Shown here: piece by piece, positions 40,206 through 42,899 of the stretch | How positions within the stretch are numbered: position 1 is the stretch's first letter | Layout of the letters: each line of letters begins with the position of its first letter | Sequence record: PZ715803.1 | Length of the DNA: 51,987 nucleotides | Origin: a phage | Strand: one strand, 5' to 3' | Notes under the pieces: generated by a model | Databases searched by the model: none | Told to the model about the DNA's origin: nothing | The model's input: only the letters and a program-made list of their open reading frames with translations | Translations under genes and position numbers: made by a program

Positions 40206-40430
40206 ATGTCCAGCAAGTTTTTAGTAGTTCGCGTATATAATCATGACAACGGATCTTCTGCTGAAATCCCGACAATTTACGACAGGGATTTTGGATGGAG
40301 TGAGCAATCGGCGGTTGAAAATGAGCGCAAGATTGCAGAAATGTACGGCGACACTTGCAGCATTGAAGTAAGGCAGTACGACGAATCGAACAAGCCAACA
40401 AACGAAACTCATATGTGGCCCGACGCATAA
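40206..40430 (+). CDS. Hypothetical protein
   Basis: 74 aa; single-gene unit between element promoter and terminator. Confidence 0.6.
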   Translation: MSSKFLVVRVYNHDNGSSAEIPTIYDRDFGWSEQSAVENERKIAEMYGDTCSIEVRQYDESNKPTNETHMWPDA

Positions 40431-40437
40431 AAATAAA

Positions 40438-40454
40438 GGAGGCATTAAGCCTCC
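40438..40454. terminator. Bidirectional terminator (GGAGGC-ATTAA-GCCTCC plus T-run) at the convergent junction
   Basis: Hairpin overlapping the spanin stop codon; T5CT4 on plus strand. Confidence 0.6.
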
Positions 40455-40840
40455 TTTTTCTTTTCTCTCCAGTAAAGACAAATCAGCACAATTAACACAA
40501 CCACGCATATGATTACTGGATCGTACCATCTGCCGTTATTACCCTGCACGACCTGAATTTTGTCTGCCTTGATGGTATTGGCCTGAATGGTTGATGTTGT
40601 GAAATCCTTCTTGCTGGACGTGTCCACCTTGTCAACCGCAGATTCCTTTATTGTGGTTTTCTGTTTTGTGCTGGCGTCCTGCTTTGCTGTAATGCCAACT
40701 GTCTGCTTCACGTTCTCCGCGCCAGCCTGTGCTGTGATTTCCGGCTTACTGCCGATTAATCCGGTCAGTGGCGTAACGCTTGAACATCCAGACAAGATCA
40801 CCGCCATTGCGATTGGTGCGATTAAAAATTTCTTCATCAT
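40445..40840 (-). CDS. Unimolecular spanin (N-terminal lipoprotein signal plus C-terminal transmembrane helix)
   Basis: Lipobox ILSGCSS, C-terminal hydrophobic helix [16 protein letters not shown]; ATG overlaps endolysin stop. Confidence 0.65.
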
Positions 40841-41328
40841 TTCAGATCCATTGTGCAATATTTGTATTCGACCTTGCGCCTGTTAAGTAAGCCTTTAGAC
40901 TTCTCGCGCTTTCCTGTTTTGGGGTTATGGTAATACGTCCAACGATAAAGCTGATCGCAAGCCTCGTTTAATTTCCCCTGGTTGATGAGTTTCAGCATTG
41001 TTGAATTTCTGAAAGCTCCCACACCTGCATTGTAAGTGAATGAGTACATTGCTGCACGCATACTATCAGGAATGTCAACCTTAACTTGCTTGTCAACTTC
41101 CTTTTTAGCAACCTGGATATGCTTAGCCAACAAAGCATCACACTCTTTTTTAGTGTACGTTTTCCCCAGGATAACATCTGGTCCGGTGATTCCTGCGCAA
41201 ACCGTCCATACTCCAGCAATATCTTTGTATGGCTTGTATCTTACCCCTTCGATCTCTTCAAGAAGTGGAGAAGTCAAGGCAACCGCAACGCCAAAGGCCG
41301 CCGCCGCCACCCTGTTCTTGATGCTCAT
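40837..41328 (-). CDS. Endolysin, phage lysozyme (GH24-like) with N-terminal signal-anchor-release (SAR) domain
   Basis: Catalytic E-x8-D-x5-T arrangement ([19 protein letters not shown]); N-terminal weakly hydrophobic Ala/Gly-rich helix. Confidence 0.8.
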
Positions 41329-41543
41329 TACTTGCCCCTGATTTCAATAGCTTTTTGAATATCACCTTTTTCGATCGCCTCGTGGAATTTTTTACTATCA
41401 CGCCAGCGAAGGTAAGCACCCCACGCACCGAATGCAGCCATTAAAACAAAGCTGGCAATAGCAATGGTTAACTGACCTGTAGCGGCGCTTGCGATAGATG
41501 AACCGCCAGATCCGGCTGTAGCTGCGTTAATAAAATCTTTCAT
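41328..41543 (-). CDS. Holin (pinholin-like, two transmembrane segments)
   Basis: 71 aa, Gly/Ala-rich hydrophobic segments and charged C-terminus; stop overlaps endolysin start. Confidence 0.6.
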
Positions 41544-41689
41544 TTTTAATGCTCCATATTAATTAAAGTCAATATATTAACCGCATAATAAACGCACATG
41601 ATAAAAATTTAAACAAAAAAAAGAGGCGACAAACGCCGCCCCTTTGCAAGTTTTTGATTTAATTTGTCATTGATTTAAATAAAAATTCA

Positions 41690-42805
41690 TCAATTCATCA
41701 TTTCTGGATAGTGAACAAATCGCCCAACTTCTCCATGCTCTTTGTCGTAAATGATAACCGCTGCACGGCGTCGAGATCTCCAGCCACCGCGCGCGGCGTA
41801 TGCGTCTTTTGCCGCCAGGGTGCTATGTACCTCCACGATCCCAAGCGACGTTTCCGTCACGGTCTGGTGATGCCAGTGCCCTACGTGCGCATACATCGTT
41901 TTTGAGTTTCCGAAGTCCTCCCGCCAATCTGACGCGCACATCATTAGCAAAGTCTCAGGTTTGCGCACTGTGTGCCCGTGATGGTACGCAAGGAAAGTTT
42001 TTCCGTATTGCGTGTGGTGAACAACGCGAGGAGAAACATCAACGTAAACGCGCGGCTCGTTCTCATATGCTGCCGCCATTGCTGCGCGTAGCCAAATCAT
42101 TCCTGATTGGTCGTGATTGCCCTCAACGATCTGGACCTCAACATGTTTATGCTTTAACAGCATTTTATTAATTGCGCGGCGCATTGCACGTATTGCAACG
42201 TAAACCAATTTTGCATATCGGCTATCTTGATCAAGTACGTGACCGCTTGCAGGGGTCACAGCCTCCAGGCCATCGCTATGAAGCATGTCGCCACCAATCA
42301 GGATAACAGCCTTTTCACTGTCAGGTGCGCACATCAAAGCATAGTCGATAAAGTTATTCATAACGCGCTCCGCCGTCGCAGTATCCCAATTTTCGCCGCA
42401 CTCGTGCTTATGGGCCATAGCGCCTAAGTGCATGTCAAAGATCGGATACAATGAAAGCGTTTCATTATAGTCACGCTCCTGCAATGGAACTGGATCTAAT
42501 CGCGGCACTTCCTCGCTAAACGCCTCCATTGCTGCGCGCATCAATGCTTCTAGTTGCTCTTTATCCTTGCTGGTTTTGGTCCACTTGAGGATTATGTTTC
42601 CTTCTTTGTCAGTCATTACTGACTCACCATGAACACCAAAACCAGGCGCTCCGATGGTTGATAACTGTCCTTGCTTTGCAAGACGCGCCGCGCGACGCTC
42701 GACGCTTCTCACATTCATTCCGTACTCTTGAGCGATCTGTTTATATGTCTTACCTGCCGCTCGTTCGATCTTGAATTGCTCATCTGTAATTTTTACATTT
42801 TTCAT
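41690..42805 (-). CDS. Calcineurin-like metallophosphoesterase with N-terminal helix-turn-helix domain
   Basis: DxH, GDxxHxD, GNHD motifs; N-terminal HTH-like segment TYKQIAQEYGMNVRSVERRAARL; ATG 42805. Confidence 0.75.
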   Translation of the reverse strand: MKNVKITDEQFKIERAAGKTYKQIAQEYGMNVRSVERRAARLAKQGQLSTIGAPGFGVHGESVMTDKEGNIILKWTKTSKDKEQLEALMRAAMEAFSEEVPRLDPVPLQERDYNETLSLYPIFDMHLGAMAHKHECGENWDTATAERVMNNFIDYALMCAPDSEKAVILIGGDMLHSDGLEAVTPASGHVLDQDSRYAKLVYVAIRAMRRAINKMLLKHKHVEVQIVEGNHDQSGMIWLRAAMAAAYENEPRVYVDVSPRVVHHTQYGKTFLAYHHGHTVRKPETLLMMCASDWREDFGNSKTMYAHVGHWHHQTVTETSLGIVEVHSTLAAKDAYAARGGWRSRRRAAVIIYDKEHGEVGRFVHYPEMMN

Positions 42806-42899
42806 TCTGCTACCTATCTCATTACTATATGGTACATAACTGTAACAGCGATGATAACGGGTAACGGTAGAACAAACAAGCGCCACATGATAACTATCC

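Follow-up and report, generated by a model that had tools for sequence, protein, structure and literature searches.

A predicted T1-type late lysis cassette with holin, SAR endolysin and unimolecular spanin genes in a Warwickvirus-like phage genome

The closest described systems are the lysis genes of coliphage T1 and its relatives. In the curated T1 GenBank record (AY216660 / NC_005833), gp13 is designated a "pinholin class 2", gp12 a "SAR endolysin" and gp11 a "u-spanin", and the T1 and TLS holin homologues are likewise named pinholins in the literature. T1 gp11 is the prototype u-spanin; as described in PMC6139136, it has been characterized experimentally, complements a lambda Rz/Rz1 defect, and carries an LSGC lipobox whose mutation was tested. 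According to Kongari et al. 2018 (PMC6139136), T1gp11 family members share their cassettes with genes for a SAR endolysin and a pinholin, and a beta-strand-rich periplasmic domain is among the family traits. An exonuclease-holin-endolysin-spanin core module is reported for 508 of 522 Drexlerviridae (PMC13164509). The three-gene cassette is already known, to the point of being textbook material, and near-identical phage genomes (~99%) are annotated in the same way. Hundreds of sequenced phages of Escherichia and Klebsiella, which are therapy candidates and sources of endolysins, carry the T1-type holin family.

Here we analyzed this region in sequence record PZ715803.1, a stretch of phage DNA of 51,987 nucleotides, the whole of which is called the window below. 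Judged by sequence comparison, the window is a Warwickvirus-like (Tempevirinae) Drexlerviridae genome, and complete Drexlerviridae genomes matched both of its halves at 95-97%. A sequence-only reading of the window had proposed a three-gene lysis cassette composed of a holin, a SAR endolysin and a unimolecular spanin. The minus-strand ORFs and the homology of their products to T1 gp13, gp12 and gp11 agreed with this proposal. The region is very probably the late lysis cassette of a T1-like coliphage, in which the holin, SAR endolysin and unimolecular spanin genes are orthologues of T1 genes 13, 12 and 11, respectively. The cassette marks the window as a T1-like virulent coliphage; its significance otherwise goes little beyond correct annotation. 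The features of the locus are listed below.

42886..41690: upstream exonuclease gene, closed by the intrinsic terminator at 41620..41645
41620..41645, minus strand: intrinsic terminator of the exonuclease gene and 5' boundary of the lysis transcription unit; 11-pair stem (6 GC pairs) with TTTTTTGTTT after it
41585..41613, minus strand: weak sigma-70-like match (TTTAAA-17-TATTAT), a possible promoter only, in the AT-rich 76 nt that precede the holin gene
41543..41328, minus strand: holin, 71 aa, ATG at 41543 to TAA at 41328 (ORF reading)
41475..41534, minus strand: holin residues 4-23, weakly hydrophobic G/A/S/T-rich N-terminal segment (hydropathy)
41409..41471, minus strand: holin residues 25-45, the one clearly hydrophobic transmembrane helix, with the charged C-terminal tail RWRDSKK... 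after it
41328..40837, minus strand: endolysin (lysozyme), 163 aa, ATG at 41328 to TGA at 40837 (ORF reading)
41260..41310, minus strand: endolysin residues 7-23, putative signal-anchor-release segment (hydropathy and alignment with the R21 SAR segment)
41203..41250, minus strand: codons of the catalytic triad E27 (41250-41248), D36 (41223-41221) and T42 (41205-41203), in the pattern E-x8-D-x5-T
40840..40445, minus strand: spanin, a predicted lipoprotein with a C-terminal membrane helix, 131 aa, ATG at 40840 to TAA at 40445
40784..40840, minus strand: lipoprotein signal peptide of the spanin, residues 1-19, with the lipobox L16-S17-G18-C19 (Cys codon tgt, 40786-40784)
40469..40519, minus strand: C-terminal transmembrane helix of the spanin, residues 108-124, then the basic tail REKKKEA (predicted to be cytoplasmic)
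40435..40457, both strands: predicted two-way intrinsic terminator, a GC-rich hairpin with a 9-bp stem, a 5-nt loop and a T-run on each strand

Gene junctions and flanking terminators

The cassette showed 99.1% nucleotide identity to that of phage PeterMerian across 1401 bases, and 76 phage records covered at least 80% of the region. The cassette genes are conserved beyond chance, at nucleotide identities as high as 99% and, in other Drexlerviridae, at protein identities as low as 44-66%. Neither tRNA nor Rfam matches were found in the whole window. As had been proposed, the holin stop overlapped the endolysin start: at this junction, GCAAGTAATGAGC, TAA and ATG have one base in common (TAATG, base 41328). 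The endolysin stop also overlapped the spanin start, as proposed, through the four bases ATGA at 40840-40837 (CTGAAATGATGAAG). The form of the junction differed between relatives, which showed a 1-nt overlap, abutting genes, or a 4-nt or 25-nt overlap. Tight or overlapping start/stop junctions are common in phage genomes generally.

Downstream, the predicted terminator at 40435-40457 is common to the lysis cassette on the minus strand and the convergent helicase operon on the plus strand. Folded as RNA, the lysis strand reached -17.1 kcal/mol (z = -4.2) and the plus strand -14.2 kcal/mol (z = -4.0), and the T1 record marks the equivalent downstream hairpin as a terminator. The spanin stop codon had been placed in the loop of a bidirectional terminator at 40438-40454; the TAA (40447-40445) does lie in the loop (40448-40444), and 40438-40454 is the core of the hairpin. 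The codons of the final spanin residues, K-K-E-A, lie in the 5' arm. A hairpin with the stop codon in its loop was found in all seven divergent relatives examined (7/7), whose stem sequences differed but were complementary owing to compensatory changes. Because the spanin stop codon is in the terminator loop family-wide, the terminating ribosome may mask the hairpin, and the hairpin may act mainly on the convergent transcript.

Upstream, each of the seven relatives (7/7) also had a terminator at this place, 60-85 nt ahead of the holin start codon, and the T1 and Motto records annotate it. The sigma-70-like match at 41585..41613 agreed at 9 of 12 positions and was without conservation in the relatives. 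A promoter scan around the cassette returned 3 sites in the region compared to 3.2 in shuffles, indicating no excess. When the upstream regions of eight phages were aligned by eye, the terminator was conserved, and no conserved -35/-10 pair was seen before the holin. TTGAC(A/T) was observed ~30 nt before the holin ATG in four of the eight phages, with no usable -10.

Spanin and endolysin

The spanin, which begins MMKKF, was 46% identical to T1 gp11 over 135 aligned columns, that is, over its full length, and 44-53% identical to the proteins of seven relatives. It matched PHROG 1804 "Rz-like spanin" (E = 7.6e-47). The T1gp11 family is clustered at identities of at least 40% over at least 40% of the length (Kongari et al. 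2018), and the values for the spanin lie within this range. In the 99%-identical phage PeterMerian, the last cassette gene is annotated "u-spanin". The string ILSGCSS, which had been read as a lipobox, was present, and a PROSITE-type lipobox pattern matched with Cys19. C19 and the adjoining S20 were invariant in all eight relatives (8/8). The residue at +2 is Ser; therefore, there is no Asp inner-membrane retention signal. The expected C-terminal transmembrane helix was located at residues 108-124. With a mean Kyte-Doolittle (KD) hydropathy of 3.04 and a summed insertion energy of -2.65, it was the most hydrophobic segment among the three proteins, and a C-terminal hydrophobic stretch followed by a basic tail was seen in 8 of 8 spanin relatives. 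Cys occurred only at position 19, the predicted lipidation site, and at positions 112 and 121 within the helix, which agrees with the absence of periplasmic Cys from u-spanins (PMC6139136). There was no separate i-spanin/o-spanin pair in the cassette. Alternative-frame ORFs within the endolysin and spanin genes (e.g. 40992..41219 and 40513..40635) gave no sign of an embedded Rz1-like gene and contained no lipobox. Sequence comparison thus supports assignment of the last cassette gene to the T1 gp11 family of unimolecular spanins, and the earlier preference for a single chain over an i-/o-spanin pair is borne out by the full-length identity to gp11.

The endolysin scored 134.4 bits on the Pfam profile Phage_lysozyme (PF00959), whose cut-off is 22.3; the match (E = 3.6e-39) took in profile positions 2-125 of 125. 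The protein was 66% identical to T1 gp12. It aligned with structure 3HDE of the full-length phage 21 R lysozyme (E = 4.8e-47, query residues 2-159 on 4-161) and with RrrD 4ZPU (E = 4.2e-46). Since the alignment to 3HDE starts at residue 2, the N-terminal hydrophobic segment is included, which favors the earlier reading of the protein as a SAR lysozyme. On the basis of these alignments, the endolysin is a GH24 / T4-lysozyme-type muramidase and probably a SAR endolysin of the phage 21 R class (class II). The Ala/Gly-rich, weakly hydrophobic N-terminus that had been described corresponds to 17 uncharged residues, 7-23, which are preceded by the basic residues K4 and R6. Their mean KD was 2.01 with 53% Gly/Ala/Ser/Thr; the SAR segment of RrrD/R21 has values of 2.29 and 59%. 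The only Cys residues, at positions 44, 63, 124 and 158, align with those of R21; none lies in the N-terminal segment, which indicates a phage 21-type enzyme, not a P1 Lyz-type one. The residues E27, D36 and T42 were invariant in eight aligned endolysins, R21 included.

For a Drexlerviridae endolysin, azide-sensitive (Sec-dependent) lysis has been reported and the enzyme discussed as non-cleaved (bioRxiv 2026, 10.64898/2026.09.09.750462). The published 20 N-terminal residues of that endolysin match the JeanPiccard endolysin exactly; the JeanPiccard protein and the one analyzed here are 47% identical. R21 has six residues (TGPSGN) between its SAR helix and the catalytic Glu region, whereas the Drexlerviridae endolysins are without them, so that their SAR helix adjoins the catalytic Glu. 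The endolysin could be held inactive by sheer membrane proximity and not by the refolding switch of R21. A single-sequence AlphaFold2 model of the endolysin had a mean pLDDT of 56, with residues 1-50 below 50, and was too poor for reading the N-terminal packing.

Holin and alternative readings of the products

The holin gene is preceded by a GGAG ribosome-binding site 8 nt 5' of its ATG. Its product matched PHROG 2877 "holin" over the complete profile (E = 3.8e-32, residues 1-71 on positions 1-71 of 71), was 55% identical to T1 gp13, and was 100% identical to the PeterMerian holin. Residues 4-20 had a mean KD of 0.72 with 76% G/A/S/T, compared to 0.48 and 65% for the first transmembrane domain (TMD1) of EssD, the S21 homologue. 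For residues 25-41 the mean KD was 2.03, equal to that of S21/EssD TMD2 (2.02). Only T-G-Q, and no charged loop, lies between the two segments, and the two-segment hydropathy of the holin was nearly superimposable on that of S21/EssD. In the alignment of relatives, G13, G14, T22 and G23 in and around the first segment were invariant in seven of them, as were F38, G39, G42 and A43 in the alignment of the helix. Residues 4-23 would be either periplasmic or a releasable TMD1-like segment. The topology of T1-type holins is disputed: the curated T1 record gives one TMD with N-out/C-in orientation, whereas the TLS paper gives two.

The sequence-only reading had called this protein pinholin-like. Its identity as a holin stood, given PHROG 2877 and T1 gp13, whereas the pinholin part is by analogy and was not matched by homology to S21. 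Profile comparison with hhalign gave no homology to S21/EssD (probability 0.5%). EssD matched PF04971 (Phage_holin_2_1) at 2e-35, but neither this holin nor its homologues in T1 and Brooksby did; searches of Pfam and NCBIfam assigned the holin to no holin family, with a sub-threshold match to DUF3262 only. The designation "pinholin" is one that we infer: to the pinholin of phage 21 this protein shows a likeness in hydropathy only, and no homology. The analogy draws on the presence of a SAR endolysin gene in the cassette, the small size, and the S21-like hydropathy. By this analogy, the holin is most likely a pinholin that would form small holes, which in this functional class measure about 2 nm, depolarize the membrane and are too narrow for a folded endolysin. 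The T1-type holin may then be an evolutionarily independent, convergent pinholin with zero sequence homology to S21, and its Gly/Ser/Ala-rich N-terminal 20 residues may, as in S21, constitute a releasable SAR-like first membrane segment. The reasoning of the sequence-only reading was sound, though its interpretation is not new.

The main rival concerns the holin. The cassette might be as described, with the holin being a large-hole holin of the conventional type, or else a distinct kind of holin with one TMD, which would depolarize and permeabilize the membrane and release nothing specific; we regard this as unlikely. SAR endolysins can also function with large-hole holins, as in phage P1, and they do not strictly need pinholins; therefore, the pairing is no proof of pinhole formation. 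The lack of S21 homology and of a Pfam or NCBIfam holin family match is in keeping with such a holin, as is the prediction in the curated T1 record of a single TMD, N-out/C-in, unlike the two TMDs of S21. Experimental work on T1-type holins was not found in the literature searched, and as far as that literature shows, their pinholin designation is so far bioinformatic. However, a protein of 71 aa with a hydropathy near-identical to that of S21/EssD, in which a weak G/A/S/T-rich segment precedes one real TMD, argues for a pinholin, as do its consistent pairing with SAR endolysins throughout the family and the annotation chosen by specialists. The pinholin is thus the reading that we prefer. The fuller combination, in which the holin is an independent pinholin, the endolysin is inactive by membrane proximity, and the ribosome masks the terminator hairpin, is possible but doubtful as a whole.

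For the other two products, the alternatives carried less weight. It is very unlikely that the endolysin N-terminus is an ordinary Sec signal peptide, cleaved to give a soluble periplasmic enzyme that is controlled otherwise. Its basic n-region (K4/R6), short hydrophobic core with an uncharged stretch of only 17 residues, and A15-V16-A17, a signal-peptidase I site possible in principle, would suit such a peptide. Nevertheless, the segment aligns with the SAR domain of R21, which has A-I-A at the aligned position and yet reportedly is not cleaved. It is also Gly- and Ala-rich, and an always-active periplasmic muramidase would cause premature lysis. The relatives carry the annotation SAR endolysin, and the experimentally Sec-dependent enzyme discussed above as non-cleaved is one of them. 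Scarcely credible is the idea that the last gene encodes another small lipoprotein, such as a Cor-like superinfection-exclusion protein. A weak PHROG match to Cor (phrog_1119, 1e-5) was found, and several GenBank records say just "lipoprotein". However, this match went no further than the N-terminal residues 2-60, signal peptide included, whereas the full length of the protein matched the spanin PHROG, at 7.6e-47. The identity to the functionally proven T1 gp11, the C-terminal TMD, the position as the final lysis-cassette gene, and the absence of a separate i-/o-spanin pair also argue against a Cor-like protein and for the unimolecular spanin.

Proposed lysis pathway and comparison with known systems

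In the pathway that we propose, the three lysis genes would be expressed as one compact unit between two terminators, and the overlapping junctions would probably couple their translation. The terminal hairpin would end both the lysis transcript and the convergent transcript of the helicase operon. By homology to phage 21 R, the 163-aa muramidase would be exported by the host Sec system and kept inactive, tethered to the inner membrane via its uncleaved N-terminal segment. The spanin precursor would be lipidated on Cys19, cut by signal peptidase II and, with Ser at +2, sorted to the outer membrane, while its C-terminal helix, according to the topology suggested by the sequence, would stay in the inner membrane. 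With the lipid anchor in the outer and the helix in the inner membrane, one spanin chain would thus span the periplasm through the peptidoglycan mesh. The 71-aa holin would build up harmlessly and then trigger, collapsing the membrane potential, most likely through small holes by analogy. Depolarization would free the SAR segment, whereupon the enzyme would refold with its catalytic Glu positioned and degrade the peptidoglycan. Once the mesh is gone, the spanin would be able to collapse, fusing inner with outer membrane and setting the virions free, as in the model proposed for gp11.

Among the known systems, P1 Lyz (PDB 1XJT/1XJU), a class I SAR endolysin, shares with this endolysin the GH24 fold and the principle of N-terminal signal-anchor-release, but it is a distant match (E about 1e-4). 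Regulation of P1 Lyz relies on disulfide isomerization involving a Cys in its SAR domain, whereas this endolysin is without Cys in the N-terminal segment. The lambdoid phage 21/DLP12 cassette is closer. Its endolysin R21 (RrrD) is clearly homologous (E ~1e-46 to 3HDE and 4ZPU): the triad and the positions of the four Cys coincide, and its SAR segment is likewise Cys-free. S21 (EssD) has the same length and hydropathy layout as the holin, and the S-R junction overlaps too; however, S21 is not homologous to this holin and has a dual-start Met that this holin lacks. Furthermore, phage 21 uses a two-component embedded spanin, Rz/Rz1 (rzpD/rzoD), in contrast to the single chain here.

T1 (AY216660 / NC_005833) has the same gene order and similar protein sizes, 71/162/133 aa compared to 71/163/131 aa here, with protein identities of 55%, 66% and 46% for gp13, gp12 and gp11. 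It also shares the upstream exonuclease gene, the downstream convergent helicase operon, a terminator on each side, the spanin stop within the downstream hairpin, and the LSGC lipobox. However, in T1 the exonuclease and holin genes are separated by an HNH endonuclease gene and a small SH3/DUF7244 gene, neither of which is in this window; a tblastn search of the window with T1 gp14, which represents the SH3/DUF7244 accessory gene found in Tunavirus lysis modules, gave no match. Both junctions in T1 are 1-nt overlaps, whereas the second junction here is ATGA. The closest counterpart is PeterMerian (Bas05, MZ501101; Warwickvirus), in which bas05_0041-0043 form effectively the same locus, with identical gene boundaries and the annotation holin / endolysin / u-spanin, differing by a few point differences only. 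About 60 other phages showed 95-99% identity to this locus.

Layout and identity of the cassette

We analyzed the region 40445-41543, in which three successive open reading frames, all on the minus strand, form a lysis cassette.

Genes of the lysis cassette
41543-41328, minus strand: holin, 71 aa, ATG at 41543, TAA ending at 41328
41328-40837, minus strand: endolysin, 163 aa, ATG at 41328, TGA ending at 40837
40840-40445, minus strand: spanin, 131 aa, ATG at 40840, TAA ending at 40445

As shown, the holin stop and the endolysin start are joined as TAATG with one base in common, and the endolysin stop and the spanin start as ATGA with four. Both overlaps had been claimed in the sequence-only reading, and all sequence strings cited there were found in the DNA. 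A GGAG was located 8 nt 5' of the holin ATG. The 1.4-kb cassette region was 99.1% identical to that of Escherichia phage PeterMerian (Drexlerviridae, Tempevirinae, Warwickvirus), in which holin, endolysin and u-spanin (unimolecular spanin) are annotated with equal boundaries, and 95-99% identical to ~60 other coliphages. The cassette is already known, being annotated in near-identical genomes; the earlier observation is correct, and so is its interpretation. Furthermore, complete Warwickvirus-like Drexlerviridae genomes matched both halves of the window at 95-97% identity, indicating that the window is essentially a whole T1-like phage genome; neither tRNA genes nor Rfam matches were detected in window 1-51987. 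Of 522 Drexlerviridae genomes, 508 reportedly contain the core module exonuclease-holin-endolysin-spanin (PMC13164509). A T1-like cassette was also present, at ~73-87% protein identity, in ~20 "Campylobacter phage" records (e.g., A16a and A119; stated host C. jejuni); these records with a coliphage-type cassette look like cases of host mis-assignment or contamination.

Endolysin and spanin

The endolysin matched Pfam Phage_lysozyme well over threshold. Its nearest solved structures were the phage 21 R lysozyme (R21; 3HDE, E = 4.8e-47) and RrrD, the twin of R21 in DLP12 (4ZPU), to which residues 2 to 159 were aligned, the N-terminal hydrophobic segment included. E27, D36 and T42 (E-x8-D-x5-T) did not vary when seven Drexlerviridae proteins were aligned with R21; the R21 sequence used is supported by its agreement with the 3HDE/4ZPU alignments. 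Residues 7-23, after K4 and R6, showed 53% Gly/Ala/Ser/Thr and a mean hydropathy of 2.01, comparable to the signal-anchor-release (SAR) segment of RrrD (59% and 2.29). This weakly hydrophobic, Gly/Ala-rich composition and the R21 homology running through the segment support the proposed SAR-type N-terminus. The segment contained no Cys and the protein's four Cys occupied the aligned columns of R21, which assigns it to the phage 21 class rather than that of P1 Lyz (disulfide-caged), which matched the endolysin only at E about 1e-4. Residues 15-17 form an A-V-A motif that might be taken for a signal-peptidase site; R21, however, has A-I-A at the aligned position and is reportedly not cleaved. 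In R21, six residues (TGPSGN) link the SAR helix to the region of the catalytic Glu; all seven Drexlerviridae endolysins lacked them, which places the Glu just four residues past the hydrophobic segment (41248-41260, residues 23-27). Azide-sensitive lysis has been described for a Drexlerviridae endolysin (2026 preprint), whose N-terminal 20 residues equal the JeanPiccard sequence in our alignment; the JeanPiccard protein is 47% identical to the window endolysin. A single-sequence AlphaFold model of the endolysin was of too low quality for use.

Spanin residues 1-19 matched the lipoprotein-signal pattern, and the Ser at +2 indicates that no signal for inner-membrane retention is present. Residues 108-124 had the highest hydrophobicity in the cassette and were followed by REKKKEA. 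The lipobox Cys and the next Ser were invariant in eight of eight relatives (44-53% identity), all of which also ended in a hydrophobic stretch and a basic tail. The remaining Cys all lay within the C-terminal helix, in agreement with published u-spanins, which have no periplasmic Cys (PMC6139136). In addition, the spanin falls in the T1gp11 family by the rule that Kongari et al. 2018 (PMC6139136) used for clustering. The lipobox, the helix and this placement argue that the last gene encodes a u-spanin, as had been proposed. T1 gp11, the prototype, complements a lambda Rz/Rz1 defect, its LSGC lipobox has been tested by mutation, and its family members, two excepted, share their cassettes with a pinholin and a SAR endolysin (PMC6139136). 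A weak PHROG match to the superinfection-exclusion lipoprotein family Cor (phrog_1119, 1e-5) covered residues 2-60 only, signal peptide included, and probably reflects only the common lipoprotein signal.

Terminators and a dispersed repeat

Signals flanking the cassette
41645-41620, minus strand: strong terminator downstream of the exonuclease gene; distance to the holin ATG, 76 nt
40457-40435 (read on the minus strand), both strands: two-way terminator hairpin AAAGGAGGC-TTAAT-GCCTCCTTT, scored terminator-like
40206-40430, plus strand: convergent 74-aa ORF, ending 5 nt before the common hairpin

The hairpin was far more stable than shuffled sequences, with -17.1 kcal/mol (z = -4.2) for the lysis strand and -14.2 kcal/mol (z = -4.0) for the opposite strand. 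The spanin TAA (40447-40445) lies within its 5-nt loop, as the sequence-only reading had stated, and the same arrangement was observed in seven of seven divergent Drexlerviridae relatives. Their stems (GGAGGC/GCCTCC, AGCCTCC/GGAGGCT, GGGGC/GCCCC, GGCGGC/GCCGCC and AGCCCC/GGGGCT) vary in sequence and keep complementarity, so that good comparative evidence points to a functional structure. Thus, the conserved hairpin constrains the end of the spanin gene, whose final two or three codons double as its 5' arm, and a ribosome terminating there would cover the hairpin. T1 records annotate the hairpin as a terminator on the convergent-operon strand. An equivalent of the 41645-41620 terminator was likewise found in seven of seven relatives. 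No convincing promoter was detected in the gap before the holin; one sigma-70-like match was at chance level and not conserved in relatives.

The convergent ORF, annotated in relatives as a hypothetical protein, is preceded by one copy (40125) of the 20-nt motif AATAGCACTTTTTGTTAAAA, which occurred 19 times in the window (up to 3 mismatches) against 0.01 expected by chance.

Copies of the 20-nt motif
2741, 13520, 17271, 33280, 34584, 35090, 37289, 37963, 40125: plus strand
21917, 26130, 28952, 30266, 31483, 31946, 43388, 44458, 46947, 48508: minus strand

Most copies lie ~21 nt before a TATAAT-like hexamer, upstream of a ribosome-binding site and ATG; in those copies that were compared with ORFs, the orientation follows the downstream gene. 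Several contain a GC hairpin in the spacer, its stem varying from copy to copy. This motif is the 21-nt direct repeat of phage TLS (consensus aaATAGCACnnnTTGnTAAAA; PMC11447400). None of the 19 copies is directly upstream of the lysis cassette.

Holin type, probable lysis pathway and comparison with T1

The description of the first gene as a pinholin-like holin stood: a full-length match to PHROG 2877 identified a holin, and the pinholin label follows from analogy, not from homology to S21, the phage 21 pinholin. No Pfam or NCBIfam family matched the holin. PF04971 matched the DLP12 equivalent EssD at 2e-35, but not the window holin or its T1 and Brooksby homologues, and profile comparison with the prototype pinholin gave a probability of 0.5%; judged by sequence, the two are unrelated. 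Such a result would be compatible with a conventional or otherwise different holin, which we consider rather unlikely. Despite the absent homology, the holin mirrors the physical layout of S21, with a weak Gly/Ala/Ser/Thr-rich segment at residues 4-20 (Kyte-Doolittle 0.72; S21 TMD1, 0.48) and one real helix at residues 25-41 (2.03; S21 TMD2, 2.02) before a charged tail. From this analogy and the pairing with a SAR endolysin, a pinholin is a reasonable inference. Sources differ on whether T1-type holins have one or two membrane segments, and no experimental study of them was found in the literature searched. The N-terminus (MKDFINA..., 41523-41543) contains a single Met, whereas the TLS, Brooksby and Motto homologues show M1...M7, a proposed dual-start (antiholin) motif of TLS-type holins.

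Most likely, the cassette would follow the standard pinholin/SAR endolysin/u-spanin pathway. The muramidase would be exported through Sec in inactive form and tethered to the membrane, and the spanin would be lipidated and sorted to the outer membrane with its C-terminal helix remaining in the inner membrane. Holin triggering would depolarise the membrane, the endolysin would then be released and refold, peptidoglycan would be degraded, and the spanin would fuse the two membranes. The cassette itself shows the gene identities, motifs and homologies; we infer all the dynamic steps from phage 21, T1 gp11 and one Drexlerviridae endolysin.

The only difference from Tunavirus concerns optional SH3/DUF7244 and HNH genes 5' of the holin. 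The exonuclease-holin gap (41544-41689) holds no gene: the HNH endonuclease is absent from this position, and tblastn with T1 gp14 found no match to the SH3/DUF7244 gene in the whole window. Otherwise, the order is that of T1: exonuclease, terminator, gp13, gp12, gp11, a terminator overlapping the spanin end and a convergent helicase operon. The curated T1 record AY216660 names gp13 "pinholin class 2 (1 transmembrane domain, N-out C-in)", gp12 "SAR endolysin" and gp11 "u-spanin (PMID 30135120 shows molecular function)". Protein identities to these were 55% for the holin, 66% for the endolysin and 46% for the spanin, and on every property tested the cassette belongs to the T1 lysis-cassette family.
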